Origin: Kineococcus radiotolerans SRS30216 = ATCC BAA-149
GTDB taxonomy: Bacteria > Actinomycetota > Actinomycetes > Actinomycetales > Kineococcaceae
Length of the DNA stretch: 32,000 nt
NCBI RefSeq assembly: GCF_000017305.1
Contig: NC_009664.2
Coordinates: 3,150,001 to 3,182,000 of the forward strand
Direction: 5' to 3'
Made by a program: the position numbers and the translations under genes. This document shows, one piece after another, positions 2,906-32,000 of the stretch. The notes below the pieces were generated by a model. The model searched no databases, was not told the origin of the DNA, and saw only the letters and a program-made list of their open reading frames with translations. The stretch's first letter is position 1; every line of letters starts with the position of its first letter.

Positions 2906-2925
2906 ACCTGGCACCCTTGTCGACC

Positions 2926-5617: not shown

Positions 5618-5623
5618 GCCGGG

Positions 5624-5629: not shown

Positions 5630-5646
5630 GCGACCGCGCGGCTGCC

Positions 5647-5652
5647 TAGACT
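5647..5652 (+). promoter_or_regulatory. Candidate -10 box TAGACT for leaderless clpS
   Basis: TAGACT-gctcgg-GTG, a TANNNT hexamer exactly 6 nt upstream of the clpS GTG (5659). There is no Shine-Dalgarno sequence. Confidence 0.4.
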
Positions 5653-5658
5653 GCTCGG

Positions 5659-11265: not shown

Positions 11266-11325
11266 GACCGGTCCGAGGTGAGCCCGGGTGTGCCCACCCT
11301 GGTCCGGGGTGGCACAGTGACCGCG

Positions 11326-11901
11326 ATGTCGACCTCGAGCCCACGGGACGCCGCGGAGACCAGCGCTGAATCCGCGCTGGTCGCCGCGGCCCGTGGCGAC
11401 CAGGCCGCCTTCGCGGCGTTCTACGACGCCACCGCCGCGGCCGCGCACGGCACGGTCCTGCGCGTCCTGCGCGACCCGGCCCAGTCCGAGGAGGTCGTCC
11501 AGGAGGTGTTCCTGGAGGCGTGGCGCACCGCGGCCCGCTTCGACCCGGCCCGCGGCAGCGCCCGGGCGTGGGTGGTGACCATGGCGCACCGGCGGGCGGT
11601 GGACCGGGTCCGCGCGGCGCAGGCCAGCGCGAACCGCGACGAGAAGGTCGGCGTGCGCGAGCTCCCGCCCTACGACAGCGTCAGCGAGGAGGTGCAGGTG
11701 CTGCTCGAGCAGGACGAGGTGCGCCGCGCGCTCACCTCCCTCACCCCGCTGCAGCGCGAGGCCATCGACCTCGCCTACTACGGCGGACGGACCCACCGGC
11801 AGATCGCCGACGACCTCGCGGTGCCGCTGGGTACCGTGAAGACGAGGCTGCGCGACGGCCTCATCAGACTGCGGGACGCGATGGGGGTGGTGTCGGCGTG
11901 A
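11326..11901 (+). CDS. sigK: ECF RNA polymerase sigma factor SigK (ECF19-type)
   Basis: GDQAAFAAFYD, VQEVFLEAWR, AWVVTMAHRRAVDRVR, LQREAIDLAYYGG and LGTVKTRLRDGL align closely with M. tuberculosis SigK. ATG 11326 is chosen by N-terminal length. GTG 11278 is an alternative start. Confidence 0.85.
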   Translation: MSTSSPRDAAETSAESALVAAARGDQAAFAAFYDATAAAAHGTVLRVLRDPAQSEEVVQEVFLEAWRTAARFDPARGSARAWVVTMAHRRAVDRVRAAQASANRDEKVGVRELPPYDSVSEEVQVLLEQDEVRRALTSLTPLQREAIDLAYYGGRTHRQIADDLAVPLGTVKTRLRDGLIRLRDAMGVVSA

Positions 11902-12782
11902 ACCCCCTCGACGAGAACTCCCGCGACCGCTCCCACGACCACCGCCCCACCCCTTCGGAGGACCCCTTGCTCGCCGCCGCCTGGGCGCTCGACGCGCTCG
12001 ACGACGACGAGCGCGCCGCCTACGAGGAACGCCTGCGCACCCGCCCCGAGGAGCGGGCCGACGCCGACGCGCTGCGCGAGACCGCCGCCCGGCTCGGCGC
12101 GGCCGTGCCCGTCGAGCCCCCCGCCCGGCTGCGCGCGGGGATCCTCGCCGCCCTGGCCACCACCGCGCAGGAACCCCCGGGACAGGAACTCCCCGCGCAG
12201 GAACCCCCCGCGCAGGAACCCCCGGGACAGGAACCCCCCGCGCAGGAACCCTCCGCGCAGGAACCCCCCGCGGTCACCGACCTCGGCGCAGCCCGGGCCG
12301 CCCGGCGGGACCGGACGCGTCGTCCCGCCCGCTGGAGCGTCCTCGTCGCCGCCGCCGGGCTCGTCGTCGCGGCGGCCGGCATCGGCGTCGGTGTCGGCGC
12401 GGGACCCGACGACCCGCCGGTCGTCAGCGCCCAGGAGGCCGCGCGCCAGGAGGTCGCGGACCTCCTCGCCGCCCCCGGGGCCCGGGTCTCCACCGTCACG
12501 GCCAGCGACGGCGGTACGGCCACGCTCGTCCGCGCCGACGGCCGCCTGGGCGTCCTGACGACGGGTCTGCCCGCCGCCGGCGCCGGGCGGGACTACCAGC
12601 TCTGGCTGGCCAGCGGCGAGGCCGTGTCCTCCGCCGGGATGCTCGGCGTGGGAGCGGGGGGAACGGCGGCGACGGTGGTGGAGGTCGGGGACTCCGACGG
12701 GGTCGGGATCTCCGTCGAACCCGCCGGGGGCTCGCCGCAGCCCACCACGACCCCCGTGGTGTTCACCGCCCTGCCCGCCTGA
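11898..12782 (+). CDS. rskA: Anti-sigma-K factor RskA
   Basis: GTG 11898 overlaps the sigK TGA as GTGA. The N-terminal anti-sigma helix is LLAAAWALDALDDDERAAYEERL. There is a single TM helix (WSVLVAAAGLVVAAAGIGVGV). The C-terminal RskA domain shows DYQLWL...GISVEPAGGSPQPT. Confidence 0.85.
   Translation: MNPLDENSRDRSHDHRPTPSEDPLLAAAWALDALDDDERAAYEERLRTRPEERADADALRETAARLGAAVPVEPPARLRAGILAALATTAQEPPGQELPAQEPPAQEPPGQEPPAQEPSAQEPPAVTDLGAARAARRDRTRRPARWSVLVAAAGLVVAAAGIGVGVGAGPDDPPVVSAQEAARQEVADLLAAPGARVSTVTASDGGTATLVRADGRLGVLTTGLPAAGAGRDYQLWLASGEAVSSAGMLGVGAGGTAATVVEVGDSDGVGISVEPAGGSPQPTTTPVVFTALPA
12168..12272 (+). repeat. Seven tandem 15-nt repeats (CAGGAACCCCCSSSR) encoding (QEPPx)7 inside rskA
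   Basis: The units start at 12168, 12183, 12198, 12213, 12228, 12243 and 12258. They are in frame and encode QEPPGQELPAQEPPAQEPPGQEPPAQEPSAQEPPA, between the anti-sigma domain and the TM helix. Confidence 0.9.
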
Positions 12783-12802: not shown

Positions 12803-12807
12803 GACCG

Positions 12808-12889
12808 TGCGGGAGACGGGACTCGAACCCGCACGCCCGGAGGCACAGGAACCTAAATCCTGCGTGGCTGCCAGTTACACCACTCCCGC
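12808..12889 (-). tRNA. tRNA-Leu (anticodon UAG), type II with long variable arm; no encoded CCA
   Basis: The minus strand reads GCGGGAG-TG-GTG..CAC-G-CAGGA-TTTAGGT-TCCTG-TGCCTCCGGGCGT-GCGGG-TTCGAGT-CCCGT-CTCCCGC-A. The acceptor stem is 7 bp. The anticodon loop has U33 and anticodon TAG. The T-loop is GTTCGAGTC. Confidence 0.85.
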
Positions 12890-13880: not shown

Positions 13881-14228
13881 GTGACACCCCCCACCGACCC
13901 CACGACGCCCCCCGCGGACCGGCTGCCCGTGCGGATGCTGCACGACCGCGTCCTCGTCCTCCCCGACGACGCCGCGGAGCGCAAGTCCTCCGCCGGCATC
14001 CTCATCCCGGCCACCGCCGCCGTCGGCAAGCGGCTCTCCTGGGCGCTGGTCGTCGCCGTGGGGCCCCACGTCCGGCAGGTCGAGCAGGGGGATCGGGTCC
14101 TCTTCGACCCCGAGGAGAAGGCCGAGGTCGAGCTGCACGGCAAGGGGTACACCCTGCTGCGCGAACGCGACCTGCACGCCGTCGCCGCCCCGGGCGTCGA
14201 GGACGGCGGCACCGGGTTGTACCTCTGA
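13881..14228 (+). CDS. GroES (Cpn10) family paralogue with an N-terminal extension
   Basis: 115 aa. LHDRVLVLPDDAAERKSSAGILIP...VVAVGP...GDRVLF...LLRERDLHAV follows the GroES fold pattern (mobile loop, VVAVG). There is no groEL nearby. Confidence 0.75.
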   Translation: MTPPTDPTTPPADRLPVRMLHDRVLVLPDDAAERKSSAGILIPATAAVGKRLSWALVVAVGPHVRQVEQGDRVLFDPEEKAEVELHGKGYTLLRERDLHAVAAPGVEDGGTGLYL

Positions 14229-14272
14229 ACCGCTACTCGCCGCTCGACGTCGCGGGGCCGCTGCCCCTGGAC

Positions 14273-15562
14273 ATGGTCCGCGCCGTCCCCGCCATCGTGC
14301 GGGCCCCGCACCTGTTCCTCGCCGAGGTCACCCGCCGCCACGGCCCCGTCGCGGCGATCCCGTTGCCGCGCACGCCCGTCCTCGTCCTCGCCGACCCCGA
14401 CGGGGTCCGCCGGGTCCTCGTCGAGAACGCCCGCGGCTACGGCAAGGCGACGATCCAGTACTCGGCGCTGGCGACGGTCACCGGCCCCGGGCTGCTCGCC
14501 GGCGACGGGGAGGTCTGGAAGCAGCACCGCCGCACCGTCCAGCCCGCCTTCCACCACGGCAGCCTCGAGGACGTCGCCGCCCACGCCGTGCACGCCGCGC
14601 GGGGGCTGGTCGCCGAGGCCGACGCCCTGCCCCCGGGCACCCCGCTGGAGGTGCTCGGCGCGACCTCCCGCGCCGGTCTGGAGGTCGTCGGGCACACCCT
14701 GGCCGCGGCCGACCTCTCCGGGGACGCCCCGCTGCTCGTCGAGGCCGTCGGGCGGGCCCTCGAACTCGTCGTCCGCCGCGCCGCGAGCCCCGTCCCCGCG
14801 GCCTGGCCGACCCCCGCCCGGCGGCGGCTGGCCCGCGAGGTCGCGGTGATCGACGAGGTCTGCGCCCGCATCGTCGCGACGCGGCGCGCCCGCCCGCTCG
14901 AGGACCCCCGCGACGTCGTCGGGCTGATGCTGGCCGCCGGGATGGACGACCGGCAGGTCCGCGACGAGCTCGTCACCTTCGTCGTCGCCGGGCACGAGAC
15001 CGTCGCGTCCTCCCTCACCTGGACCCTGGACCTGCTGGCCCGCGCCCCCTCCGTCCTGGCCCGGGTCCACGCCGAGCTCGCCGGCGCCCTCGGGGGGCGC
15101 GAGCCCGGCTGGGACGACCTGGGGAAGCTGCCGCTGCTGCGGGCCGTCGTGGACGAGTCGCTGCGCCTCTACCCCCCGGCGTGGGTGGTGACCCGCCAGG
15201 CCCTCGCCGACGACGTCGTCGCGGGCGTCGCGGTCCCCGCGGGGACGCTGGTCATCGTCTGCACGTGGGGGCTGCACCGCGACCCCGCGCTGTGGGAGGC
15301 GCCGGAGGAGTTCCGCCCGGACCGCTTCCTCGACGCCCCCCGCCCGGCGGCGGGCAGCTACGTCCCCTTCGGGGCGGGACCGCGGTTGTGCATCGGGCGC
15401 GACCTCGCCCTCGTCGAGGAGGTCCTGGTCCTGGCGACGCTGCTGTGCGAGCGCACCGTGCGGCCCGCCGGCCCGGCGCCGCGCGTCGATGCGCTGGTGA
15501 CGCTGCGCCCGCGCGGGGGGCTGCCGCTGCACGTGGAGCGTCTGGCACCCTCGGCGTCGTGA
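14273..15562 (+). CDS. Cytochrome P450
   Basis: 429 aa. The I-helix is VVAGHETVASSL, the ExxR motif is DESLRLYPP, and the heme-thiolate loop is FGAGPRLCIGRDLAL. Confidence 0.9.
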   Translation: MVRAVPAIVRAPHLFLAEVTRRHGPVAAIPLPRTPVLVLADPDGVRRVLVENARGYGKATIQYSALATVTGPGLLAGDGEVWKQHRRTVQPAFHHGSLEDVAAHAVHAARGLVAEADALPPGTPLEVLGATSRAGLEVVGHTLAAADLSGDAPLLVEAVGRALELVVRRAASPVPAAWPTPARRRLAREVAVIDEVCARIVATRRARPLEDPRDVVGLMLAAGMDDRQVRDELVTFVVAGHETVASSLTWTLDLLARAPSVLARVHAELAGALGGREPGWDDLGKLPLLRAVVDESLRLYPPAWVVTRQALADDVVAGVAVPAGTLVIVCTWGLHRDPALWEAPEEFRPDRFLDAPRPAAGSYVPFGAGPRLCIGRDLALVEEVLVLATLLCERTVRPAGPAPRVDALVTLRPRGGLPLHVERLAPSAS

Positions 15563-15972
15563 ACGAGAGCCGCCCCGCCAGCCGCAAGGAGACCTTCGTC
15601 TTCGCCGCCTCCGACGGCGTGCCCCCGCAGGTCGGCCCGTTCGCGCACGCGACCCGCCTCGGCGACCTGGTCTTCCTCACCGGCCAGATGCCCACCGACC
15701 CCGCCACCGGGGAGCTGGTGGGCGGCGGGATCGTCGAGCAGGCCGAGCAGGTCCGCGCGAACCTCGCCGCCGTCCTCGCGGGGTTCGACCTCACCCTCGA
15801 CGACGCCCTGCAGGTCCGCGTCTACCTGCGGCACTTCGACGAGCACTTCGAGGCGTTCAACGAGCGCTACCGGACGTGGTTCGCCGGGCCGCTGCCCGCC
15901 CGCACGACGATCGGGGTCACCGGGCTCGCCGTGGGCGCCCTCGTGGAGGTCGACGTCACCGCGGGCCGGTGA
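15559..15972 (+). CDS. RidA/YjgF/Endoribonuclease L-PSP family protein
   Basis: GTG 15559 overlaps the P450 TGA as GTGA, 137 aa. GPFAHATRLGDLVFLTGQ, QVRANL and ARTTIGVTGLAVGALVEVD are family motifs. Confidence 0.85.
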   Translation: MNESRPASRKETFVFAASDGVPPQVGPFAHATRLGDLVFLTGQMPTDPATGELVGGGIVEQAEQVRANLAAVLAGFDLTLDDALQVRVYLRHFDEHFEAFNERYRTWFAGPLPARTTIGVTGLAVGALVEVDVTAGR

Positions 15973-16088: not shown

Positions 16089-16445
16089 GTGAAACCGCTC
16101 CAGCAGGTCCTGCGGGACCTCGAGTTCGCCGCGGGCCAGGGCACGCTCACGCCCTCGTTCCTGGACTGCTACGCCCGCCGCCACGGCGAGAAGGTCCTCG
16201 CCCTCTACGCCCTCGCCGCCCACCACGGCCTGCCCGTCGCCGACGAGGACGGCCGCAACGACCACCTCGCACCGCCGCGGGAGTGGCGCTCCTCGGTAGA
16301 CCTCGGGGCCGTGGAGCGCGAGCTCGACGCCCGCAGCGCCGCCGTCGTCCGCGAGGTCCACGACGCCGCCGACGACGGGCGCCCCGCGGTGCTGCGCAAG
16401 CGCGACCGGCGCGGCTCCCACCCGCTCACCACGACCGGCGGCTGA
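16089..16445 (+). CDS. Hypothetical protein (118 aa), no recognisable domain
   Basis: GAGGAGGA (16075-16082) lies 6 nt upstream of GTG 16089. GC3 is strong in this frame, so the overlapping antisense ORF 16065-16421 is rejected. Confidence 0.6.
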   Translation: MKPLQQVLRDLEFAAGQGTLTPSFLDCYARRHGEKVLALYALAAHHGLPVADEDGRNDHLAPPREWRSSVDLGAVERELDARSAAVVREVHDAADDGRPAVLRKRDRRGSHPLTTTGG

Positions 16446-16459
16446 GGGGCGGTCTCAGG
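16442..16459. repeat. Copy A of the stop-to-stop junction motif CTGAGGGGCGGTCTCAGG
   Basis: It contains the TGA of the 118-aa gene (16443-16445) and the TCA (stop complement) of the 160-aa gene (16455-16457). It matches 17910-17928 at 18 of 19 positions with a 1-nt indel. Confidence 0.8.
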
Positions 16460-16937
16460 GCATCTCCACCGTCTCGGCCCGGCGGACCTCCGCCAGGGCC
16501 GCGTCGATCCGCCGCCGCAGCGGGGGACCCGCCGAGGCGCCCCCGGCCGCCACGAGGTCGTGGACCAGCAGCAGGGAGTGCTGCAGGACCAGCGCGTGGC
16601 CCAGCCGGGGGACCTCCTCGGGGTCCGGGTGCTCCCCGAGCGCCGCGGTGAGGACCAGGACGAGGATCCGGGCGTCCAGCGCCGGGAACCAGCCCGCCGC
16701 CCGCGCCGTCCGCGCCACCGCCTCCCGCAGGTCGTCGGCGTCCAGGCCGTCGGGGTGGCGCTCCTCCAGCCCCTGCCGCAGCACCCAGCCCAGCACGGTC
16801 CGGGCCTGGTCGGCGTCGAAGCCGGCCAGCTCCGCACCGGCGCCGTCGAAGTCCTCGGCGTCCGCGCGGGCGACGGCGTCCACGGCGCGGGTGAGCAGGC
16901 GGGTCAGCAGGGCGGGGTCGGCCGGGGAGGGGGTCAC
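16455..16937 (-). CDS. Hypothetical protein (160 aa, acidic, predicted helical), divergent from the LysR gene
   Basis: GTG at 16937, with GAGAGGA 7 nt upstream on the minus strand. GC3 is high. I recognise no domain. Confidence 0.6.
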   Translation of the reverse strand: MTPSPADPALLTRLLTRAVDAVARADAEDFDGAGAELAGFDADQARTVLGWVLRQGLEERHPDGLDADDLREAVARTARAAGWFPALDARILVLVLTAALGEHPDPEEVPRLGHALVLQHSLLLVHDLVAAGGASAGPPLRRRIDAALAEVRRAETVEMP

Positions 16938-17928: not shown

Positions 17929-18808
17929 AGCAGGCGAGCCCGGAGCGCAGCGCGTCGAGGTTCTCCCGCATGAGGCCGAGGTAGTCCTCGTCGGCGTCCA
18001 CGCGTTCCACCGGGTGCAGCACCGCCGTGCGCACCCCGAGCTCCGCGGCCAGCTTCTCCGCGACGGCGGGGTTGGCGGTGGACTCGAAGAAGATGGTCGT
18101 CACGGCGTTCTCGCGCGCCACCTCCAGCACGTCGCGGATCCGGGCGGGGGAGGGTTCGACCGACGGGTCGATCCCGGCGATGCCGATCTGCCGCAGGCCG
18201 TACCGCCCGGCGAGGTAGCCGAACGCCTCGTGGGAGGTGACCAGGGCGGCGTCCCGGCAGCCGGCCAGCGCCCCGGCGTAGTCGGCGTCCAGGGCCTCCA
18301 TCCGCTGCCGCAGTTCGCCCGCCCCGGCGGCGTACGCGGCCGCGTGGTCCGGGTCCACCTCGGACAGCTCCGCCGCCACGTCCTCGCCGAGGTCGGCCAT
18401 CCGCACGGGGTCGAGCCAGAAGTGCGGGTCCCGCTCGTCGTCGGCGTACCGCGCGGCGTCGACGAGGTGCGCGGGCGGGCGGGTGGACAGGGCGTCGTCG
18501 ACCGCCGGTTGCAGGCCCGACAGGTGCACCACCACGTCGGCGCCGGTCACGTCGGCGAGCTGGCGGGTGGAGATCTCCGCGTCGTGGCTGTCGGCGCCGG
18601 GGGCGACGAGGTTGCTCACCGCCGCCCGATCGCCGGCCACCGCGGAGGCGACGTACTCCAGCGGGTGCGACGTGGTGACGACGGTCAGGCCGTCACGCGC
18701 GCCACCCGCCCCGTCCCCGCCGGCTGCGGGGTCCTCCGCGCTGGAGGACCCCCCGCAGCCGGCGAGCAGGACGAGGGCTGCGGCCCCGCCCAGGAGGGCG
18801 GACCTCAC
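17924..18808 (-). CDS. Metal (probably zinc) ABC-transporter substrate-binding lipoprotein, cluster A-I (ZnuA/AztC-like)
   Basis: GTG at 18808, 294 aa. The lipobox is LLAGC. Metal-ligand contexts are TTSHPLEY, GADSHDAE and VTSHEAFGYL, and DPHFWLDP is present. There is no long His-rich loop. The start overlaps the upstream stop as GTGA (18805-18808). Confidence 0.85.
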   Translation of the reverse strand: MRSALLGGAAALVLLAGCGGSSSAEDPAAGGDGAGGARDGLTVVTTSHPLEYVASAVAGDRAAVSNLVAPGADSHDAEISTRQLADVTGADVVVHLSGLQPAVDDALSTRPPAHLVDAARYADDERDPHFWLDPVRMADLGEDVAAELSEVDPDHAAAYAAGAGELRQRMEALDADYAGALAGCRDAALVTSHEAFGYLAGRYGLRQIGIAGIDPSVEPSPARIRDVLEVARENAVTTIFFESTANPAVAEKLAAELGVRTAVLHPVERVDADEDYLGLMRENLDALRSGLACS

Positions 18809-20058
18809 TCGGTGACCTCGCCGGGGACGCCGGTGAGCTCGTTCGGCTGCACCGTGAGGGTGCCGCTGGCGTAGACCTCGCCGGTCTCGATGTCGACCGC
18901 GTGGATCTCCTTCGTGGCCGGCTCGGTGACGTACGCGGTGCCGTCCATGGTGAAGACCTGCGGCTGCGGGGCCTGCCAGTCCTCCTGGACCTCCCACGGG
19001 TCGACGACCGGGGTGGAGCGGGTGACGGTGCCCGCGACGGTGTCGACGAGGTGCAGCTGACCGTCGGTGCCGAGCACGACGCCCTCGCCGTTCTCGCCGC
19101 GGCCGAGGGAGCGGTACCAGTAGGAGGTGCCCCCGGGCAGTTCCACGAGGCGCATGCTCGCGGTGGTGGTGTCGATGAGCGAGACGCGCGTGGTGAGGTC
19201 GATCTCGGCGTCCGGGTTCGACTTGTAGTCGCCGAGGACGATCGGGGACTCCTCGGTGCCCCACTGGTTCCCGATGCGGCCGTAGGCGTCCGGGCTCTGG
19301 ACCTTGGTGATCTCGGTGCCCTTGACGACGAGGACGCCGTCGCTGCAGCCGATGACGACGGTCTCGTCCGCGGCGACGGTCTCGCCGTGGGTGTTCGGGC
19401 ACTGGTCGTTCGCGGCGATCTCCCGGTCCTGCGCGTCGAGGATGCGGATGCCCGTCCGGGCCTCCTCGGTGCCCTCGGTGACGACGAGCGTCCCGTCGCT
19501 GCGCTCGACGGCGACGCCGTGGTGGGCGGCGGGGGTGGTGTGCTCGCGGGCCTCGCCCTCGGCGACGGCGTCGTGGCCGACGTGCTCGGAGTCGAAGGAC
19601 ACGACGTGACCGGTGCCGTCGTCGAACAGCGTCGTCCTGCCGGCGTGGCGCACGACGTGGCCGGGCTCCTCGGCCCCGTACACCACGCCGGTGTCGTGCG
19701 GTTCGCCCGTGTAGTGGTGCGCGTGGTCGCCGTGCGGTTCGCTCCACGCGCCGGCGTCGACGACGTGGAAGCCGCCGGTGGCGGAGACCACCACGTGCCG
19801 GCCGTCGCCCGCGGGGTTGAGGCGGGTGAAGCCGTCGAAGGGCAGGTCGGCCAGCACCTCGAAGGTGGCGGCGTCGAGGACCTGGACGCCGCCGTCGTAG
19901 GTGACGGCCACGCGCGGGGCGGCGGCGGCGACCTCGGTGGCGGGGCGCTCGGTCGCGCTGCTGGTGGCGGGAGCGGCGGGTTCCTCCGCGGAGCTGCCGC
20001 CGCAGCTCGTGAGCAGGGCCGCGGTGAGGGGGAGGGCGAGGAGGGGGCTGCGGCGCAC
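18805..20058 (-). CDS. His-rich beta-propeller-like lipoprotein, probable zinc metallochaperone (AztD-like)
   Basis: GTG 20058 gives the lipoprotein signal VRRSPLLALPLTAALLTSC. The GTG at 20109 would give a 36-aa signal, so it is rejected. The product is 417 aa with HGDHAHHY, HVGHD and AAHHG clusters and repeated beta-strand blades. It is translationally coupled to the binding-protein gene. Confidence 0.6.
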   Translation of the reverse strand: MRRSPLLALPLTAALLTSCGGSSAEEPAAPATSSATERPATEVAAAAPRVAVTYDGGVQVLDAATFEVLADLPFDGFTRLNPAGDGRHVVVSATGGFHVVDAGAWSEPHGDHAHHYTGEPHDTGVVYGAEEPGHVVRHAGRTTLFDDGTGHVVSFDSEHVGHDAVAEGEAREHTTPAAHHGVAVERSDGTLVVTEGTEEARTGIRILDAQDREIAANDQCPNTHGETVAADETVVIGCSDGVLVVKGTEITKVQSPDAYGRIGNQWGTEESPIVLGDYKSNPDAEIDLTTRVSLIDTTTASMRLVELPGGTSYWYRSLGRGENGEGVVLGTDGQLHLVDTVAGTVTRSTPVVDPWEVQEDWQAPQPQVFTMDGTAYVTEPATKEIHAVDIETGEVYASGTLTVQPNELTGVPGEVTE

Positions 20059-24281: not shown

Positions 24282-24371
24282 CCCGCCAGCGTCGGCGACC
24301 GCGGGAGGTCGCACAACAGAGCCCCCGCGGACTGCGCACGATGACCCCGTCGCCGGGCGGGAGGTGGCAAA

Positions 24372-24878
24372 GTGCCCACCGTGGACACCCTCGACGCGTT
24401 GGACGCCCGGATCCTGCTGGCCCTGGACGCCGCGCCGGACGCCACCGTCCTGGCCCTGGCCCGGGAGCTGGGGGTGGCGCGCAACACCGTGCACGCCCGG
24501 TTGCTGCGGATGAACGCCGCCGGGGCGCTGGGGGAGTTCAGCCGCCGCCTGGACCCCGTCGCCCTGGGCTACCCGCTGGTGGCGTTCCTGTCCGTCGCGC
24601 TGAGCCAGGCGTCGGGGCCGGAGGCCATCGCGGCGCTGCGGGAGGTCCCCGAGGTGGTGGAGATGCACGCCACGACCGGCGACGCGGACCTGCTGATGAA
24701 GGTCGTCGCCCGCGACACCGCCGACCTGCACCGGATCACGACGTCGCTGTTCAGCGTCCCCGGGGTCGTGCGCACGAGCACCTCGATCTCGCTGGCGACG
24801 GAGCTGCCGCCGCGCCACCAGGCCCTGCTGCACCGGGCGGCCGCCGCGGCCCTGGTGCGTCGCGGGGCGAGAGGCTAA
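24372..24878 (+). CDS. Lrp/AsnC family transcriptional regulator
   Basis: GGGAGG lies 7 nt upstream of GTG 24372, 168 aa. The HTH is LDALDARILLALDAAPDATVLALARELGVARNTVHARL. The RAM domain shows VEMHATTGDADLLMKVVARD. Confidence 0.85.
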   Translation: MPTVDTLDALDARILLALDAAPDATVLALARELGVARNTVHARLLRMNAAGALGEFSRRLDPVALGYPLVAFLSVALSQASGPEAIAALREVPEVVEMHATTGDADLLMKVVARDTADLHRITTSLFSVPGVVRTSTSISLATELPPRHQALLHRAAAAALVRRGARG

Positions 24879-24961
24879 CCTTCGGGCAGGTTGTACGACC
24901 AGCCTGAGAACGACGGCTCCCGCGACTACGCGGGCCCCGTCCACCGGTGCAGGAGTCCTCC

Positions 24962-25342
24962 GTGACCCGATCCCCCTCTGCCAGCCCCTGGGTCTTCCAC
25001 CCGGACGACGTCCTCGAACCCGTCCTGCGCGTGCGCCTGGACCCCCGCCCCGACCACCTGCGCGTGGTGCCCGTCGGCGAGCTGGACGACTCGTCGGTGG
25101 ACCTGCTGCGCGCCGCCGTCGAGCACGCCCTCGCCCAGCGCCGCGACGTGCAGCTGGTCATGGCCGAGGTCACCTTCTGCGACGTGGCGGCGGTGGAGGA
25201 CGTCCTGCGGCTGCAGCGCACCGCCCACGACGCCGGGCACCGCCTCGTCCTCACCGGCGTCCGGCCGTTCCTGCTGCACGTGCTCACCGTCCTGGGGGTC
25301 GCGGACGTCCTCTGCCCGCACCTCGTCCGCCGGGTCTCCTGA
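24962..25342 (+). CDS. STAS domain protein (anti-sigma-factor antagonist fold)
   Basis: AGGAG (24951-24955) lies 6 nt upstream of GTG 24962. GTG 24947 is an alternative start. LRVVPVGELDDSSVDLLRAAVEHAL...VQLVMAEVTFCDVAAVEDVL...LVLTGVRPFLLHVLTVLGV follows the SpoIIAA/RsbV pattern. Confidence 0.75.
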   Translation: MTRSPSASPWVFHPDDVLEPVLRVRLDPRPDHLRVVPVGELDDSSVDLLRAAVEHALAQRRDVQLVMAEVTFCDVAAVEDVLRLQRTAHDAGHRLVLTGVRPFLLHVLTVLGVADVLCPHLVRRVS

Positions 25343-25394
25343 CCGCCCCGGTTCGCCGGGTGCCCGTTCGCCGCGCGCGTGCGAGGCTGTGCGG

Positions 25395-25436
25395 GTCCGG
25401 TGCGGGACGGCACCGGGCGGCACCGAGCGGGGTGCC
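25395..25436 (+). promoter_or_regulatory. Two abutting hairpins, each with a 6-nt loop, in the leader of the ANTAR gene
   Basis: Hairpin 1 pairs CCGGTGC (25397-25403) with GCACCGG (25410-25416) around the loop GGGACG. Hairpin 2 pairs GGCACC (25419-25424) with GGTGCC (25431-25436) around the loop GAGCGG. The arms are cross-complementary, because GGTGC and GCACC each occur twice. The GGAGG ribosome-binding site is at 25448-25452 and the GTG at 25458. Confidence 0.35.
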
Positions 25437-25457
25437 TCGTGACGAGCGGAGGTCGCC

Positions 25458-26711
25458 GTGCAGCGCGCCCGGATCCACGCCGAGGGCGCCGACCCGGCCC
25501 GGCGCCTCGAGGTCGTCACCGAGGAGCTGGCGGTGGCCACCGAGGAGCTGGCCGCGCAGCAGCAGGAGATCACCGCCCTCCTGGCCCGCGAGGCCTCCGC
25601 GCACCGGGTGCTGCGCGCGGTGGCGGAGTCGGTGGACCTGCCCGTCGTCACCACCGACGCGGACGGGGCCGTGACCGCGGCCAACGAGGCCGCCTCGGCC
25701 CTGCTGGGCGTCCCGCTGGCCCGGTTGCCGCGCGCCCCCCTGCTCACCCACGTCGCCGCGCCCCACCGGGCCCGGGCCCGCCGCCTCCTCGCCCTCGCCC
25801 GGGAGGCGGGGGGCGCCTCCGGCGAGCTGGACCTGGTCCCGCGCCACGGGGACCCCGTGCACGCCCACGTGGCCCTCACCCCGGCCGAGGACGGCCCGCG
25901 GGCGGGGGCCTGGGGCGGGGGCGCCGTCTCCTGGGTCCTGTCCACCCCCGGGGAGCCGCCGCACCGGGAGCCACTGCTGCGGGCCCTGGCCGACCTCACC
26001 TCGCTGCCCGTGGCCGACGGCGACCGGCACGGGGCGCTGGCCCGGCTGACGGCGAGCACGACCGCGGCCGTCCCCGGGGCGGCCTGGACCAGCGTCACGC
26101 TCGGCAGCCCCCTCGCGCCGGAGGAGGTCGTGGCGGACTCCACCGGGGCCCAGGCGTTCGACGGGGCGCAGTGGCGGGCCGGCGAGGGGCCCGGGGTCGT
26201 GGCCGCCGAGGGGGGCGCCGTCGTCGGGGTCCTCGACGTCCGCGCCGACGCCCGGTGGCCGCGGCTGACGGCCGCGGTGGCCGCGCTGCCCGTGCGCTCG
26301 GTGCTGGCCGCCCCGCTCGTCGTCGACGACGAGGTCGCGGGGGTGCTGACCGTGGGGTCGGAGGAACCGGGGGCGTTCGCCGGGGAGGGCCCCCGCGCCC
26401 GGGCCGAGGTGTTCGCCGGGGCCGCGGCGGCCCTGCTGGTGTCCCTGCGGCAGGTGGGGGAACTGCGCTCGACGGCGGAGCACCTGCAGCTGGCCATGGC
26501 CTTCCGCTCCACCATCGAGCAGGCCAAGGGCCTGGTGGCCGCGTGGCTGGGGTGCTCGATCGAGCAGGCCTTCGACGTCCTGACCCAGCTCAGCCAGGAC
26601 CGCAACGTCAAGGTGCGCGACGTCGCGGCGCTGCTGGTGAAGGACCCCGGCGACCAGGCCCTCCTGGCGCTGCTGCGCCGGGCGGCGGTCCGGGTGGTCC
26701 GGCGCGCCTGA
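25458..26711 (+). CDS. Coiled-coil / PAS / GAF / ANTAR domain RNA-binding regulator
   Basis: 417 aa. The N-terminal coiled coil is EELAVATEELAAQQQEI. The PAS-like segment shows VVTTDADGAVTAANEAASALLG. A GAF-like middle region follows. The C-terminal ANTAR signature is STIEQAKGLVAAWLGCSIEQAFDVLTQLSQDRNVKVRDVA. Confidence 0.85.
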   Translation: MQRARIHAEGADPARRLEVVTEELAVATEELAAQQQEITALLAREASAHRVLRAVAESVDLPVVTTDADGAVTAANEAASALLGVPLARLPRAPLLTHVAAPHRARARRLLALAREAGGASGELDLVPRHGDPVHAHVALTPAEDGPRAGAWGGGAVSWVLSTPGEPPHREPLLRALADLTSLPVADGDRHGALARLTASTTAAVPGAAWTSVTLGSPLAPEEVVADSTGAQAFDGAQWRAGEGPGVVAAEGGAVVGVLDVRADARWPRLTAAVAALPVRSVLAAPLVVDDEVAGVLTVGSEEPGAFAGEGPRARAEVFAGAAAALLVSLRQVGELRSTAEHLQLAMAFRSTIEQAKGLVAAWLGCSIEQAFDVLTQLSQDRNVKVRDVAALLVKDPGDQALLALLRRAAVRVVRRA

Positions 26712-26782
26712 GGGCGGCGCCCGGTTGCCGGCCGGGGGGTTCCGCGGGACGGTGGTGCCAGGAACGGACGAGGAGGAACGTC

Positions 26783-27184
26783 GTGGCCCGGCTCGAACTC
26801 GACGCGCACCTGTCCTCGGTCGGCACCGCCCGGCACTGGGCGGCGGGGGAGTTCCTGCGCACCGGCCGCGGCGGGGACGCCGCCGCCCTGGGTGTCCTGG
26901 AACTCCTCGTCACCGAGACCGTCGCCAACGCCGTCCACCACGGCCGCGGGCCGCTGCGCCTGGACCTGACCCGGGACGGGGCCACCGGTCGCGTCCGGGT
27001 GTCCGTGCACGACGGTGAACCGCGCCCCCCGGTCCTGCGCACCGTCGGCCCGCGCGCCACCGGGGGACGGGGCATCGCCCTCGTCGACCGCCTCGCCGCC
27101 GCCTGGGGGACCGACCTGGAGGGTCCCGCGGGCAAGACGGTGTGGTTCGACGTGGCCCCCGGCCCCGTCCTCGCGGCCGCCTGA
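26783..27184 (+). CDS. RsbW/SpoIIAB-like HATPase_c anti-sigma-factor-type serine kinase
   Basis: AGGAGGA (26771-26777) lies 5 nt upstream of GTG 26783, 133 aa. The N-box is LVTETVANAVHH, the G1-like box is VHDGEP, and the G2-like box is GGRGIALVDRLA. Confidence 0.75.
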   Translation: MARLELDAHLSSVGTARHWAAGEFLRTGRGGDAAALGVLELLVTETVANAVHHGRGPLRLDLTRDGATGRVRVSVHDGEPRPPVLRTVGPRATGGRGIALVDRLAAAWGTDLEGPAGKTVWFDVAPGPVLAAA

Positions 27185-27218
27185 GGACCCCCGCCCGTTC
27201 CGTCCCACGACCGGCGGA

Positions 27219-27254
27219 GGGGCCGGTGGGGCGCCGTCGCGCCCCACCGGCCCC
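27219..27254. terminator. Perfect 16-bp hairpin between convergent genes (bidirectional terminator)
   Basis: GGGGCCGGTGGGGCGC (27219-27234) pairs perfectly with GCGCCCCACCGGCCCC (27239-27254) around the loop CGTC. Confidence 0.65.
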
Positions 27255-27280
27255 CGGGTCGTGCCGTCCGGTGGTGCCGC

Positions 27281-29203
27281 TCAGGTGCCCGCGGGCACCG
27301 GGTAGTCGACGACGTAGCTCGGCGTGCCGGTGTTGCTGTTGTCGACCGGGGCGCCGGTGTCGTTGACGACGTGGTCGATGGTGCCGGCGCTGAGGTTGAC
27401 GGTGAGGACGTGGTGCAGCCTCACCCCCGGGGTGACCGGGACCTCGAAACCGCGCGTCGCGTGGATCGAGGGGTCGTTGCTGGTGAAGACGTAGGACCCG
27501 CCCCCGTACAGGCGGTGCCTCTGCACGTCGTCGGCCACCTTGTACGCCGCCCAGCCCAGGACGCCGTCGTGCTGCCACGCGGCCTGGTTAGGCGGGTCGT
27601 AGGGCAGTTCGTTCTGGAAGAAGACGGTGGTCCCGTCCTCGCCGTTCCAGATGACGTTGTACTCCTGGAAGTGCTCGACGAACAGGCCGGTCGCGGTGAC
27701 GCGGTCGCCGTTGACGACGACGCCGTTGCGGCCGGTGCTGACCGCCCAGCGCTCGTCGTCGTTCGCGAAACCCTCGACGCCGTGGTCGGCGCGCCACACC
27801 CAGGTGTGGTCGACGAGGACGTCGTCGCTGTTGATCTCGAGGCTGACCTCGGCCTTGCCCACGTGCGGGCCGCCGACGCGGAAGTACACGTCGGACAGGG
27901 TCGTCGGGTTCGCCGGGTCGCTCTTGCCGGGGTTCTGCCGGCCGTGCCGGTCGCCGACCCGCAGCAGGGCCGGGGACTCCACGGTGCCGGCGTCGAAGGA
28001 GACGCCGGCGACGATCACGCCGGGGACGTCGGCGACCGTCATGGGGACGGCGCCGCCGACGGCCGTGAGCGTCGCGTGGCCCAGGCCCAGGACGACCGTG
28101 CCGGCGCGCTTGACGGCGATGCTCCTGGCGACGTCGTAGACCCCCGGCGTGAGGAGGAGGTTCCGGCCGCGGGCGAGTTCCCGGTTGATCTCCTGCACGC
28201 TGCTGGAGGGGCTGGCGACGAAGAAGTCGCTGAGCGGCAGGGTGCGCCCCGCGGTCGGGCCCTCGTCCCAGGAGACGCCGGAGGAGTTCCGCTGCGCCGA
28301 CGGGACGCGCACGTTGTACTTCCCGTCCCGGCCGAGGAACAGGTAGGGCTTCTCGCGGCTGACCGGGGTCGTGGCGAGGGTCGTGTACGGCGGGGTGGGG
28401 AACCCGGTCTCGGCCGGGGCGCCCTCGACGCCCGAGAAGACCTGGTTCCAGACGCCGTTGCTCCAGCTGCCGATCGTGCTGCCGCGGGTGTACCACTGCT
28501 GCTGGGAGCCGTTGACGACGTCGCCGGTCTTCGAGTCGGCGATGTAGCCGCCGCTGGCGTACTGCGGGCCCGCGGTGCAGTAGTCCATCAGCGACAGGGT
28601 CCCGCCGGTGACGTTCACCCGGCGCATCGAGACGGCCTGGGAGACCGCCCAGAAGTTCGCCGTGCCGCGGCAGTCGTCCTGACCCGCGCCGTTGACGTCG
28701 ATGGTGAGGTTGGACAGGGTGCGCCAGAAGTTGACCAGGGCGAGGCAGTTGCTCGTGCCCCCGCCCTCCAGGCAGCGGTTGTAGACCTCCACCTTGCCGT
28801 TGATGGTCACGTCGCTCGGCGACGCCCCGAGGCCGGCGACCTCGGTGTAGTAGCCGACCTGCATCTGCAGCGGGTTCTCGTCGGTGCCGTAGACGCCGGG
28901 CTTGAACAGCAGCGCGTAGCGCTGGGTGCCCATCTCGGCGTCGATCTGCTGGGCGTTGACCTCGTCGACCTTCTGCTGGATCTGCTCGACCGGCATGCTC
29001 GGGTCGAAGACCACGACGTTGGTGCCGAGGCCGGGGGCCGCCGGGCCGGGCGCGCGCGGCGGGGCCGCCGCGGCCGGGGGGACGACCGCCGCGCCGGTCG
29101 TCACGGCGACGGCGAGGGCCAGGGCGCGGGCGAGGTGGCGGGGGCGGCGGTGGGGGCCGGCCGGTGCCCGGGAGCTGCTCGTGGGGGGTGCTGCGGTCTG
29201 CAC
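27281..29203 (-). CDS. Secreted right-handed beta-helix (pectin-lyase-fold) protein, probable polysaccharide hydrolase/lyase
   Basis: GGAGAGGA lies 6 nt upstream of GTG 29203, 640 aa. The signal peptide has an HRRPRHLARALALAVAV core and an AAA cleavage site. Repetitive beta-helix-like segments are present (VNGxxV turns, LTIDVNG, VVVNGDRV). The exact family was not recognised. Confidence 0.7.
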   Translation of the reverse strand: MQTAAPPTSSSRAPAGPHRRPRHLARALALAVAVTTGAAVVPPAAAAPPRAPGPAAPGLGTNVVVFDPSMPVEQIQQKVDEVNAQQIDAEMGTQRYALLFKPGVYGTDENPLQMQVGYYTEVAGLGASPSDVTINGKVEVYNRCLEGGGTSNCLALVNFWRTLSNLTIDVNGAGQDDCRGTANFWAVSQAVSMRRVNVTGGTLSLMDYCTAGPQYASGGYIADSKTGDVVNGSQQQWYTRGSTIGSWSNGVWNQVFSGVEGAPAETGFPTPPYTTLATTPVSREKPYLFLGRDGKYNVRVPSAQRNSSGVSWDEGPTAGRTLPLSDFFVASPSSSVQEINRELARGRNLLLTPGVYDVARSIAVKRAGTVVLGLGHATLTAVGGAVPMTVADVPGVIVAGVSFDAGTVESPALLRVGDRHGRQNPGKSDPANPTTLSDVYFRVGGPHVGKAEVSLEINSDDVLVDHTWVWRADHGVEGFANDDERWAVSTGRNGVVVNGDRVTATGLFVEHFQEYNVIWNGEDGTTVFFQNELPYDPPNQAAWQHDGVLGWAAYKVADDVQRHRLYGGGSYVFTSNDPSIHATRGFEVPVTPGVRLHHVLTVNLSAGTIDHVVNDTGAPVDNSNTGTPSYVVDYPVPAGT

Positions 29204-29231
29204 GTGGAGTCCTCTCCATCGAGGGGTGTCC

Positions 29232-29256
29232 CCGCAGTGACTCGTGTCACCTGCGG
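29232..29256. promoter_or_regulatory. Imperfect 25-bp inverted repeat; candidate LacI-family operator
   Basis: The sequence is CCGCAGTGAC-TCGT-GTCA(C)CTGCGG, with 10 paired positions, one bulged C and a central CG. It lies 29-53 nt upstream of the beta-helix gene start, in the region it shares with the divergent LacI gene. Confidence 0.35.
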
Positions 29257-29338
29257 TGCTCGCTAGCCTAGGGCCGGGCCCGGGGATGTCAACGGACCGC
29301 GTGGCGCGGGTGCGGTCGGGTGAGCGGGAGGGGGAGCC

Positions 29339-30328
29339 GTGGGGCGGGTCACCAGCAGCGACGTCGCCCGCGCGAGCGGCGTCTCGCGGACGACGGTGAG
29401 CTACGTCCTCAACGCCCGCGAGGGCGCCCTCATCTCCGAGGCGACCCGCGAACGGGTCAAGGCCGCCGCCGCGGCCCTGGGCTACGCCCCCTCCGCCGCG
29501 GCCCGCACCCTGCGCGCGGGACGCAGCGACCTCGTGGTGTGCGTGCTGCCGGACTGGCCGACGGGTCCCGTGGTCGACTCGGTGCTGGACCACCTCGCCG
29601 ACGCCCTCGCCGAGCGCGGTCTCGCCCTGCTCGTGCACCACGCCCGCGACGAGCGGCCCCTCTCCGACCTGTGGCCGGTGGTCACCCCGCGCGCGGTCGT
29701 CGGCCTGAGCGCGTTCACCCCCGAGGACGAGCGGGTCATGCAGCAGGCCGGCATCGAGGTCGTCGTGGTCCTGCAGGAGGAGGACCCCCACCGCCCCGGC
29801 GCCCTCACCGCCTCCCAGGGCGGGGTGGGGGGGCTGCAGGTCCAGCACCTGGCCGCCGCCGGGCACCGCCGCACCGGCTACGCCTACCCCACCGACCCCC
29901 GCCTCGCGGGTTTCGCCGACCTCCGCCTGGCCGGGGTCGTCCGCCGCTGCGCGGACCTGGGGCTGCCCGCGCCGCTCGTCGAGCCGGTGTCCCTCGACGT
30001 CGCCTCGGCGGTGCGCGCGGTCACCGCCTGGCGGCGCGCGAACCCGCCGGTCACCGCCGTCGCCGCCTACAACGACGAGGTGGCCCTCGCGGTGCTGGCC
30101 GGGCTGCGCGCCGAGGGGCTGGCCGTGCCCGGCGACGTCGCCGTCATCGGCGTGGACGACGTCCCCGCCGCCCGGCTGGTGACCCCGGCCCTGACCACGG
30201 TGTCCCAGGCCGCCGAGGTCCAGGCCGGGCACCTGGCCGCCCAGGTGGTCGACGCCCTCGACGGCGGGGGGAACCCGCCGCCCGACCCGGGCGACGTCCT
30301 GGGGCTCGTGGTCCGCGAGTCCGCCTGA
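29339..30328 (+). CDS. LacI family transcriptional regulator
   Basis: GGAGG lies 7 nt upstream of GTG 29339, 329 aa. The HTH is VTSSDVARASGVSRTTVSYVLN, followed by KAAAAALGYAPSAAARTLRAG and a sugar-binding domain. Confidence 0.85.
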   Translation: MGRVTSSDVARASGVSRTTVSYVLNAREGALISEATRERVKAAAAALGYAPSAAARTLRAGRSDLVVCVLPDWPTGPVVDSVLDHLADALAERGLALLVHHARDERPLSDLWPVVTPRAVVGLSAFTPEDERVMQQAGIEVVVVLQEEDPHRPGALTASQGGVGGLQVQHLAAAGHRRTGYAYPTDPRLAGFADLRLAGVVRRCADLGLPAPLVEPVSLDVASAVRAVTAWRRANPPVTAVAAYNDEVALAVLAGLRAEGLAVPGDVAVIGVDDVPAARLVTPALTTVSQAAEVQAGHLAAQVVDALDGGGNPPPDPGDVLGLVVRESA

Positions 30329-30396
30329 GGGACCCGCGCCGCCCTGCGCTGGCCCGCGCCGCCGGCTCGCGCACGAACGCTTCGCCCGCGAACGGG

Positions 30397-30402
30397 TAGC
30401 CT
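30397..30402 (+). promoter_or_regulatory. Candidate -10 box TAGCCT for a leaderless MarR/OhrR gene
   Basis: TAGCCT-gcggag-GTG (30409), a TANNNT hexamer 6 nt upstream of the start. Confidence 0.3.
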
Positions 30403-30408
30403 GCGGAG

Positions 30409-30870
30409 GTGCCCACCACCGACGAGACGGCCGATCCGCTCGCCCTCGAGCGCCAGGTCTGCTTCGCGCTCGTCGTGGCCGCCCGGAGCGTGCTGTCGGT
30501 GTACCGGCCCGTGCTGGAACCGCTCGGGCTGACCCACCCCCAGTACCTCGTGATGCTGGCCCTGTGGGGGAACGAGCCCCTGTCGGTCAAGGACCTCAGC
30601 GAGGCCCTCCAGCTCGACCCGCCGACGCTGTCGCCGCTGCTGAAGCGCCTGGAGGCCGCGGGCCTGCTGGAGCGCCGGCGCCTGCCCGAGGACCAGCGCT
30701 CGCTGGCCGTGACCCTCACCGGGCGGGGCCGCGCGCTGCGCACCGAGGCGCTGAGGGTGCCGCCGCAGATCGTCGAGCGGCTGGGGATGGACGTGCACGA
30801 GCTGGAGCAGCTGCGCGACGGGCTGACCCACGTCATCGGCGCGGCCGTCCGCGCCGGCGAGGGCTCCTGA
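30409..30870 (+). CDS. ohrR: MarR family regulator, 1-Cys OhrR-like
   Basis: 153 aa. LALERQVCFALVVA holds the single Cys, in the OhrR sensing context. LGLTHPQYLVMLALW and RRRLPEDQRSLAVTLTGRG form the wing. Confidence 0.7.
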   Translation: MPTTDETADPLALERQVCFALVVAARSVLSVYRPVLEPLGLTHPQYLVMLALWGNEPLSVKDLSEALQLDPPTLSPLLKRLEAAGLLERRRLPEDQRSLAVTLTGRGRALRTEALRVPPQIVERLGMDVHELEQLRDGLTHVIGAAVRAGEGS

Positions 30871-30888: not shown

Positions 30889-32000
30889 TCACGTCCCGGG
30901 GCCCGTCACGTCCCGCGGCCCCTCGCCCGCCGCGTCGGCGGGGCGGTACGGCAGCTCCAGCTGAGCCGCCTGCGGCACCGGGCCCGGGGACCGTTCCCGC
31001 CGGCGCCCCGAGCGGCGCCGGGTGGTCCCCACCGCCCCCTCCCGCTTGGCCCGGTACATCGCCCCGTCGGCGTCGGCGAGGAGGTCGTCGGGGGTGGTGC
31101 CCTCCCCGCTGAGGGCGATCCCGATGCTGGCCGAGACCACGATCTCGGTGCCGGCGCAGGCCACGGGCTCGGCCAGCGCCCGGCGCAGCCGGGTGACGAC
31201 GCCGTCCAGGCCGTGCGACAGCTCCTCCGGGCTGGACTGGGGGAGGTCCTCGCAGAGCAGGACGAACTCGTCCCCGGCCAGCCGCGCCAGCGTGTCCTCG
31301 CCCCGCAGCGCGGCCTGCAGGCGGTGGGCGACCGTGACGAGGACGGTGTCCCCGGCGGCGTGCCCGTACGTGTCGTTGACGGCCTTGAACCGGTCGAGGT
31401 CGATGAACAGGCAGGCCACGGACTCCCGGCGGCGCCGGGCCGCGGCCAGCGCCCGGTCCAGGCGGTCGAAGAGCAGCACCCGGTTGGGCAGGCCGGTCAG
31501 CGCGTCGTGGGCGCTGTGGTGGGCCAGCTCCCGTTCCGCGCGCCGCGCCTCGTCGCGGTCGGCCGCCATCACCAGGTAGGACGCGGTGACCTGGGCCAGC
31601 AGCCGCGTCCAGGTGAGCTCGGGCAGCTGCCACGTCCCCGCCTCGCGCCGGTACAGGTCGAGCGCGCCCCAGACCCGGCCGCGGGCCACGAGCGGGAGCG
31701 CGACGACCGACCGGAAGCCCAGGTCGAGGACCGCGGGGACGTACTCCTCCCACGCGGTCTGGACCGGGTCCTCCAGGTCGTCCACGACCACCTCGACCTG
31801 GAAGGCCATCGCGTCCTGGCAGGGGCCCTCCTGCAGCACCTGCTGCAACCGCTCGGGCCCTGCGACCGCGGGCGGGTGGGCGTGCACGAAGCGCGCGGTC
31901 CCGCCGCCGTCCTCGTCGAGGACCATGACGCCGACGCCGTCGACGGCGAGGTGGCGGCCGGCGACGTCGGCGAGGCCGCGCAGGAGCTCGTCGGGGGTGG
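30889..32000 (-). CDS. GAF-GGDEF diguanylate cyclase (5' end outside window)
   Basis: The reading frame stays open to the window edge upstream of the listed Met at 31926 (reads ...PPDELLRGLADVAGRHLAVDGVGVMVLDEDGG). A GAF-like region is followed by DALTGLPNR, FIDLDRFKAVND, an RGED I-site, and the active-site variant AGDEF. Confidence 0.85.
   Translation of the reverse strand, partial: TPDELLRGLADVAGRHLAVDGVGVMVLDEDGGGTARFVHAHPPAVAGPERLQQVLQEGPCQDAMAFQVEVVVDDLEDPVQTAWEEYVPAVLDLGFRSVVALPLVARGRVWGALDLYRREAGTWQLPELTWTRLLAQVTASYLVMAADRDEARRAERELAHHSAHDALTGLPNRVLLFDRLDRALAAARRRRESVACLFIDLDRFKAVNDTYGHAAGDTVLVTVAHRLQAALRGEDTLARLAGDEFVLLCEDLPQSSPEELSHGLDGVVTRLRRALAEPVACAGTEIVVSASIGIALSGEGTTPDDLLADADGAMYRAKREGAVGTTRRRSGRRRERSPGPVPQAAQLELPYRPADAAGEGPRDVTGPGT

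Follow-up and report, generated by a model that had tools for sequence, protein, structure and literature searches.

A STAS, PAS-GAF-ANTAR and RsbW-like gene trio in Kineococcus radiotolerans as a possible recent case of a wider actinobacterial association between GAF-ANTAR and partner-switching genes

We analysed a 32,000-nucleotide stretch of the Kineococcus radiotolerans SRS30216 genome (NC_009664.2, positions 3,150,001 to 3,182,000 of the forward strand), hereafter the window, whose own numbering is used throughout. Three adjacent plus-strand genes in it encode a STAS-domain protein (24962–25342), a coiled-coil-PAS-GAF-ANTAR protein (25458–26711) and an RsbW/SpoIIAB-type GHKL protein (26783–27184, referred to below as the kinase). 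A preceding interpretation made from the letters alone (the sequence-only reading) had proposed that these genes form a partner-switching module in which the kinase and the STAS protein gate an RNA-binding output instead of a sigma factor. We find that the trio is a young assembly, not an old module, and that STAS and RsbW-like genes nevertheless lie beside GAF-ANTAR genes in Actinobacteria well above expectation. Our best explanation, held tentatively and at somewhat less than even confidence, is that the cluster is a recent, lineage-restricted case of a widespread, uncharacterised association between GAF-ANTAR genes and partner-switching genes (STAS, RsbW-like). Overall, the earlier interpretation is partly supported.

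Genes were called from the G+C content of codon positions (third-position content, GC3) together with Pfam, which gave 36 genes in a window of ~75% G+C. The STAS, ANTAR and kinase open reading frames are co-directional and are each preceded by a purine-rich Shine-Dalgarno (SD) sequence (AGGAG, GGAGG and GAGGAGG, respectively), as previously described; they also have coding-type GC3 and Pfam matches. Relatives of the locus were taken as the contigs with the closest homologues of each trio protein, and they carry L numbers below.

The STAS gene encodes 126 aa from a GTG at 24962, 8 nt downstream of its SD, and matches Pfam STAS_2 (2e-14) and STAS (7e-9). An alternative GTG start lies at 24947; the start at 24962 is backed by 126-aa homologues (P0050-52). 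The protein has a single domain, aligns to SpoIIAA structures (PDB 1th8/1tid) and is placed by NCBIfam among anti-sigma-factor antagonists, below the trusted cut-off. The position of the SpoIIAA phospho-Ser (Ser58) is occupied by Val, in the motif TFCD-V-AAV, and Val is also found there in all three close homologues. Redox control of the RsfA-like disulfide type was considered and rejected: the Cys of TFCD is conserved, the C-terminal Cys is Arg in P0051, and no consistent Cys pair results. Upstream, the spacer between the AsnC and STAS genes (24881–24941) holds two hairpins (folding z -2.6), the second of which may terminate AsnC transcription.

In the 417-aa product of the middle gene, Pfam recognises PAS (52–148), GAF (195–325) and ANTAR (341–394; 1e-17, full model) domains and no Response_reg (receiver) domain; the input is PAS-GAF. 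By its domain content the protein is a predicted RNA-binding one-component regulator. An AlphaFold2 model (predicted local distance difference test, pLDDT, 85.9) contains an N-terminal helix at 13–58, which corresponds to the coiled coil, followed by the PAS, GAF and ANTAR parts. The C-terminal helices comprise a long one (310–364) and then 368–382, 386–395 and 400–416, with local pLDDT >90. Foldseek searches with this model returned generic PAS-GAF tandems only. Pfam, a family profile of the kinase and the modelled N-terminal helix bear out the identities first assigned to the three proteins.

The ANTAR gene has a leader of its own (25376–25457, plus strand) comprising a GTGCGAGGCT box, two small hairpins and the SD GGAGG. 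This leader is conserved in L004, L005, L009 and L010 regardless of which gene lies upstream. The hairpins, GUCCG-loop-CGGAC and GGCAYC-loop-GGUGCC, adjoin the SD; their stems are invariant, their loops vary, and they show no convincing covariation. An autoregulatory function is conceivable for the leader, as is a plain promoter with an untranslated region. As candidate ANTAR target RNAs, the three spacers of the trio were set aside: no Rfam match falls within 24300–27400, the leader loops (GGGACG and GAGCGG) are not of the A..G.. type, and folding z is near zero in two of the three spacers. Tandem hexaloop (A..G..) hairpins were not found in the three spacers, and targets may lie elsewhere.

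The kinase gene, the resident gene of the locus, encodes 133 aa (Pfam HATPase_c_2, 3e-12), and its product is 99% identical to an NCBI protein assigned to Kineococcus radiotolerans. Full-length family-profile matches are led by SpoIIAB (5e-12), with RsbW next (6e-9), and include the kinase domain of Rv1364c, and NCBIfam groups the protein with RsbA-type anti-sigma regulators, below the trusted cut-off. E45 and N49 (N box), D77 (the adenine-binding Asp) and G97 are invariant in the family, and the glycines of the G2 box are kept. In place of an intact G1 box (DxGxG) stands the degenerate DGEPRPP, and some 8 residues of the SpoIIAB lid are missing, features that do not by themselves decide activity.

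A promoter-like motif lies 5′ of the kinase gene (26725–26753, plus strand; TTGCCG-17 nt-GACGGT) and is shared by the window, L006, L007, L011 and L012 even as the gene upstream changes (ANTAR, AsnC, OCD or MFS). Its persistence suggests that the kinase gene may be an independent transcription unit, and the 71-nt kinase leader is likewise conserved in genomes without the ANTAR gene. A SigF/SigB-type promoter was considered at this site and set aside, since, by eye only, the motif fits TTGCCG-17-GACGGT better than GTTT-N17-GGGTA. Because the ANTAR and kinase genes each keep a conserved upstream region of their own, the trio is probably not a single operon.

Downstream of the kinase, between convergent genes, two perfectly complementary 16-bp arms enclose a 4-nt loop (27219–27254), an inverted repeat that had been described as a terminator closing the cluster. 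The repeat is real, but it has no T tract and is absent from the kinase-MarR spacer of relatives. Together with a pectate-lyase-like gene (27281–29104, minus strand) and a LacI-family gene (29339–30328, plus strand; both by Pfam), the two genes making up a block specific to this genome (27281–30328), it fills a ~3.2-kb interval (27185–30408) that splits the kinase from a MarR-family regulator gene (30409–30870, plus strand; Pfam MarR 3e-17). The MarR gene is 82–88% identical in L006, L007, L011 and L012, where it lies directly 3′ of the kinase gene (46–64 bp gap) and the ~3.2-kb block is not found between the two. A conserved MarR-proximal box with the palindrome CGAACGCTTCG is still present 5′ of MarR in the window.

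Comparison with relatives reveals a backbone, LacI-YitT-(aminotransferase)-AsnC-[slot]-kinase-MarR, interrupted by a slot of variable content. The upstream edge of the slot is an AsnC/Lrp regulator gene (24372–24878, plus strand; Pfam), 87–96% identical in L006, L007, L009, L010 and L012. The slot is empty in L006, where 71 bp separate the AsnC stop from the start of a kinase gene 81% identical to that of the window. L012 and L007 carry a minus-strand AsnC paralogue (AsnC2) and an OCD gene, with an additional MFS gene in L007, and their kinases are 69–71% identical to that of the window. On the short contigs L004 and L005, an ANTAR orthologue (63–65% identical) is followed by minus-strand AsnC2, and the kinase position lies beyond the contig ends. 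Their AsnC2 is 90–94% identical to that of L012; the ANTAR gene, adjoining the same AsnC2, therefore appears to sit in the same slot, followed there by AsnC2 at least.

The full trio is kept in the nearest relatives, L009 with L011 (one metagenome) and L010: AsnC-STAS-ANTAR is seen in L009 and L010 and ANTAR-kinase-MarR in L011, with identities of 75–82% for STAS (tblastn), 71–76% for ANTAR and 80% for the kinase. The expectation of a conserved neighbourhood thus held in these genomes and failed in L006, L007 and L012, relatives that are just as close or a little more distant and in which the kinase stands without STAS or ANTAR. The slot pattern looks nested: the kinase is there wherever the contig reaches, ANTAR is limited to a subset of relatives, and STAS is rarer still. 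The comparison shows that the RsbW-like gene is an old resident of the backbone, whereas only some relatives carry the PAS-GAF-ANTAR gene in the slot and a smaller number the STAS gene, and that the trio is young. A plasmid search found no near match to the window and hence no evidence for a plasmid-borne locus.

We examined the wider family through an alignment-based scan, one genome per species, which yielded 79 actinobacterial (PAS-)GAF-ANTAR loci with flanks of up to 6 kb on each side (a contig scan with the single ANTAR protein as query had given no match). The family itself comprises 17,471 cluster representatives at E<=1e-3. Six-frame open reading frames of the loci were searched with our own profiles, and matches were binned by distance from the ANTAR gene. 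STAS matches per 100 kb amounted to 12.0 at 0–700 bp, 1.0 at 700–2000 bp, 2.9 at 2–4 kb and 1.6 at 4–6 kb, and RsbW-like matches to 12.9, 0.5, 1.1 and 3.2 over the same bins. In the near zone (0–700 bp) this corresponds to 13 STAS matches observed against 2.1 expected (Poisson P 4e-7) and 14 RsbW-like matches against 1.8 (Poisson P 8e-9), so that both are ~6-7 times denser within 700 bp of GAF-ANTAR genes than farther out. The sample consists of the best 80 matches to one query, and kinship among the loci inflates these counts. Pfam confirmed 13 of 13 near STAS calls and 13 of 14 near kinase calls (HATPase_c_2). The co-occurrence above expectation that the sequence-only reading had suggested looking for among GAF-ANTAR neighbourhoods is therefore found.

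One or both partners lie within 700 bp at 21 of the 79 loci, and at 10 of 34 clusters when the ANTAR proteins are grouped by single linkage at 60% identity. The commonest families among the 111 genes within 4 kb at 17 such loci are STAS (11) and HATPase_c_2 (8), with sigma-70 region 4 at only 3; sigma genes were counted by Pfam family, phmmer with the sigma factor of the window being too insensitive. An adjacent SpoIIE/PP2C gene occurs on the same strand at two of seven annotated plasmid GAF-ANTAR loci (L093 and L094, both Streptomyces). No PP2C enrichment was seen near the GAF-ANTAR loci, a tentative result from a weak profile of two sequences that probably undercounts.

Particular arrangements recur. 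Four Amycolatopsis species (L069, L073, L079 and L084; ~1400–7200) carry [REC-PAS-SpoIIE-HATPase_c_2]-STAS-GAF-ANTAR-kinase, with Ser retained in the STAS protein and the small kinase gene convergent; as a candidate module this cluster is fuller than the trio of the window. A divergent kinase/GAF-ANTAR pair is found in four Geodermatophilaceae (Geodermatophilus, Blastococcus, Trujillonella), Saccharothrix has kinase-GAF-ANTAR-STAS, and a Blastococcus locus (L066) encodes MEDS-STAS and MEDS-HATPase_c_2 as separate genes beside GAF-ANTAR. The domains also occur fused: STAS-GAF-ANTAR in P0024 and P0199 (Pfam), and in P0053 by full-length alignment to P0024 only, and GAF-ANTAR-MEDS-STAS in the 547-aa P0183. 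Both STAS_2 and SpoIIE appear, without functional comment, in a 2025 review's list of domains from the eleven commonest Pfam ANTAR architectures (PMC12591593). The Amycolatopsis and Geodermatophilaceae clusters are stronger evidence than the present locus for an association of ANTAR proteins with partner switching.

On this basis we consider it possible, with slightly less confidence than in the association itself, that STAS and RsbW-like proteins, sometimes with SpoIIE-type phosphatases, are a widespread actinobacterial input to GAF-ANTAR proteins in which STAS takes the role of the receiver in REC-ANTAR regulators, and that the Kineococcus trio is a phosphorylation-independent version. In our best explanation of the trio, the PAS-GAF-ANTAR protein would regulate as an RNA-binding dimer, with both its PAS/GAF sensor and protein contacts with STAS determining how active it is, and the RsbW-like protein would probably be the competing partner, whether for STAS or for the ANTAR protein. 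Given the Val at the STAS phospho-acceptor position and the lack of a PP2C gene nearby, such a switch would have to work by binding and sequestration and not by phosphorylation and dephosphorylation of STAS. The two observations fit each other, and the absence of a PP2C gene from cluster and window, already stated by the sequence-only reading, was confirmed in that none of the 36 called genes (3 of them without a Pfam match) contains a SpoIIE/PP2C domain.

Several observations weigh against reading the trio as a partner switch with an ANTAR output. As judged from the protein sequence, the replacement of the phospho-Ser by Val excludes gating through STAS phosphorylation in the classical cycle of kinase and PP2C; of the earlier proposal that the kinase and STAS gate the ANTAR protein, this part falls and the ANTAR output survives as a family-level hypothesis. 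The kinase orthologues are equally conserved with STAS and ANTAR (80%, L011) and without them (81%, L006), and they retain their own promoter-like motif and MarR neighbour. In L004 and L005, which have the closest ANTAR orthologues outside the clade (63–65%), the next gene is an AsnC paralogue and not the kinase, and L005 has no STAS gene, a divergent weak GAF-ANTAR gene standing upstream instead. Among the full-length PAS-GAF-ANTAR relatives, the closest subfamily, adjacent STAS is found in 2 of ~19 and an adjacent kinase in 0 of ~19. A dedicated ANTAR-associated kinase subfamily was considered and rejected, ANTAR-adjacent kinases being only 27–39% identical to the window kinase. Kineococcus genomes are rich in such paralogues, which makes chance adjacency not negligible. 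Finally, a full-text literature search found no functional study joining ANTAR with STAS, anti-sigma or partner-switching proteins, in agreement with the earlier remark that no characterised example of such wiring was known. Taken alone, this locus is weak evidence for an ANTAR output of partner switching.

Known systems offer partial likenesses. Like SpoIIAA-SpoIIAB-sigmaF and RsbV-RsbW-sigmaB (Bacillus), the trio pairs a small STAS protein with a ~130-140-aa SpoIIAB/RsbW-type GHKL protein, but it differs from these modules in that its cluster lacks both a sigma gene and a PP2C gene, in its Val for phospho-Ser, in the degenerate G1 box and shorter lid of its kinase, and in the gene for an RNA-binding ANTAR protein placed between STAS and kinase. 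With AmiC-AmiR, EutW-EutV and PdtaS-PdtaR it shares a long helix leading into an ANTAR output domain; those systems use a (pseudo)receiver and a histidine kinase or ligand-binding protein, whereas the trio has a PAS-GAF input, with STAS and RsbW-like proteins as candidate partners. The partner protein AmiC keeps AmiR inactive, a precedent for ANTAR control by sequestration. Partner switches with non-sigma outputs exist (HsbR-HsbA, SypE-SypA, BtrW-BtrV), but these rely on STAS phosphorylation, which is excluded in the trio, and we know of none that controls an RNA-binding antiterminator. The Val-containing STAS may be likened to RsfA, an antagonist that phosphorylation does not control. The uncharacterised STAS-GAF-ANTAR and GAF-ANTAR-MEDS-STAS fusions hold the same domains in one polypeptide, but the STAS of the window is a separate gene with Val, whereas P0024 keeps Ser at the phospho-site.

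The rival that survives best, though we still regard it as unlikely, is dispersed sigma-directed switching, in which the STAS protein and the kinase are outlying members of a network serving a group-3 sigma factor (of SigB/SigF/FliA type) whose gene lies elsewhere, and the ANTAR protein, a one-component regulator in its own right, is a bystander. The SigF network of M. smegmatis comprises three RsbW paralogues together with two STAS antagonists; although encoded at separate loci, all act on SigF in trans, with their roles divided among binder only, kinase only and antagonist (PMC7693655). Because these paralogues act in trans, the absence of an adjacent sigma gene in Actinobacteria is, by analogy, not diagnostic and is no evidence for a new output. 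Like the present case, the mycobacterial network (RsbW1/RsbW2/RsbW3 and RsfA/RsfB; UsfX in M. tuberculosis) is actinobacterial and has its RsbW and STAS paralogues at a distance from the sigma gene; it differs in that its output is demonstrably SigF and no ANTAR protein takes part.

Other observations point the same way: the kinase is most similar to the anti-sigma factors SpoIIAB and RsbW and persists without STAS or ANTAR in relatives. A metagenome scan with a narrow kinase alignment (A8; the broad alignment A2 was too diverse) gave 29 distant loci, of which two have GAF-ANTAR within ~1.2 kb and one an adjacent STAS. As 28 of the 29 thus lack an adjacent STAS, the clade normally acts in trans. 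K. radiotolerans also has FliA (Krad1625), a group-3 sigma factor, without a recognisable FlgM (PMC2587704). Dispersed switching nevertheless leaves the 6-7-fold enrichment beside GAF-ANTAR genes and the STAS/GAF-ANTAR fusions unexplained, and Pfam shows no group-3 sigma gene in the window (36 called genes, 3 without a match). The sequence-only reading had seen no sigma factor gene at all, which holds for the cluster and not for the window: an extracytoplasmic function (ECF) sigma gene (11317–11901) overlaps, and is translationally coupled to, an RskA-type (anti-sigma-K) gene (11898–12782) ~13 kb from the trio. This sigma factor is not of the SigB/SigF type, has its own RskA anti-sigma factor and is an unlikely client of an RsbW-type protein.

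Slightly less probable is that only STAS and ANTAR belong together, STAS regulating the ANTAR protein as a domain that has become detached from it, and the kinase belonging to a separate unit with MarR that became adjacent accidentally, through deletions in the slot. The STAS/GAF-ANTAR fusions in two domain orders speak for such a pairing, as do the kinase-MarR arrangement conserved in every relative seen, the promoter-like motif of the kinase gene, and the AsnC paralogue that takes the kinase's place after ANTAR in L004 and L005. It is countered by L005, which has an ANTAR orthologue without STAS, and by the enrichment of RsbW-like genes near GAF-ANTAR genes generally, which equals that of STAS.

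Chance, by which insertions and deletions at a hotspot would have placed three functionally unrelated paralogues side by side in a genome with very many STAS, ANTAR, GGDEF and similar genes, we consider improbable. The slot cargo does vary (nothing, AsnC2-OCD, AsnC2-OCD-MFS, ANTAR-AsnC2 or STAS-ANTAR), each gene apparently has its own upstream control region, and Kineococcus signalling islands are dense. However, the family-level enrichment and the fusions argue that the combination is not random, and the trio is retained at 71–83% identity in its nearest relatives. Islands of related content were seen in two further Kineococcus genomes. In K. aurantiacus (L001, 2348–11254), four ANTAR-family genes, CheR-PAS, CheB, two STAS genes and SpoIIE lie within 9 kb, and both STAS proteins are without phospho-Ser. 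In Kineococcus sp. SYSU DK003 (L002), a paralogous island, which speaks for the association, has PAS-GAF-ANTAR, then CheR and CheB, then a STAS and kinase-like pair 3 kb from the PAS-GAF-ANTAR paralogue.

The reverse direction of control, in which the ANTAR protein regulates the neighbouring STAS or kinase genes through leader RNAs, has precedent in EutV, NasR and AmiR, which act on adjacent operons, and structured spacers do lie 5′ of the STAS (z -2.6) and ANTAR genes, but neither tandem hexaloop (A..G..) hairpins nor an Rfam match was found in the three spacers and the 71-nt kinase leader is conserved in genomes without an ANTAR gene, so that we think it very improbable.

The remainder of the window contains a few features apart from these subjects. 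A GAF-GGDEF diguanylate cyclase gene (30889–31998, minus strand) lies at its edge; for K. radiotolerans as a whole, 116 diguanylate cyclase domains are given in the genome paper. Immediately 5′ of cytochrome P450 and RidA genes lies a GroES/Cpn10-like gene (together 13929–15972), with no GroEL nearby. A tRNA-Leu (anticodon TAG; 12807–12889, minus strand) is the sole Rfam/ARAGORN match in the window. The three genes without a Pfam match (16089–16445, 16455–16937 and 18805–20058) have coding-type composition.

We return to the association of GAF-ANTAR genes with partner-switching genes, of which the trio may be a recent case. Next to nothing is known of the signals that feed ANTAR regulators other than those of two-component systems. 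In Actinobacteria the dominant ANTAR architecture is GAF-ANTAR, and a study of ANTAR RNAs there notes both the prevalence of GAF and PAS and the want of known upstream signals (10.1101/660928). A link to partner switching, if true, would give GAF-ANTAR proteins an input pathway, and post-transcriptional control, whether by antitermination or at translation, would be a new output class of partner switching. Actinobacteria encode many more RsbW-like and STAS proteins than SigB/SigF-type sigma factors, and many such proteins are therefore without a known client. If the association is functional, these orphan partner-switching proteins would gain a function, and partner switching would extend from transcription initiation to the RNA level.

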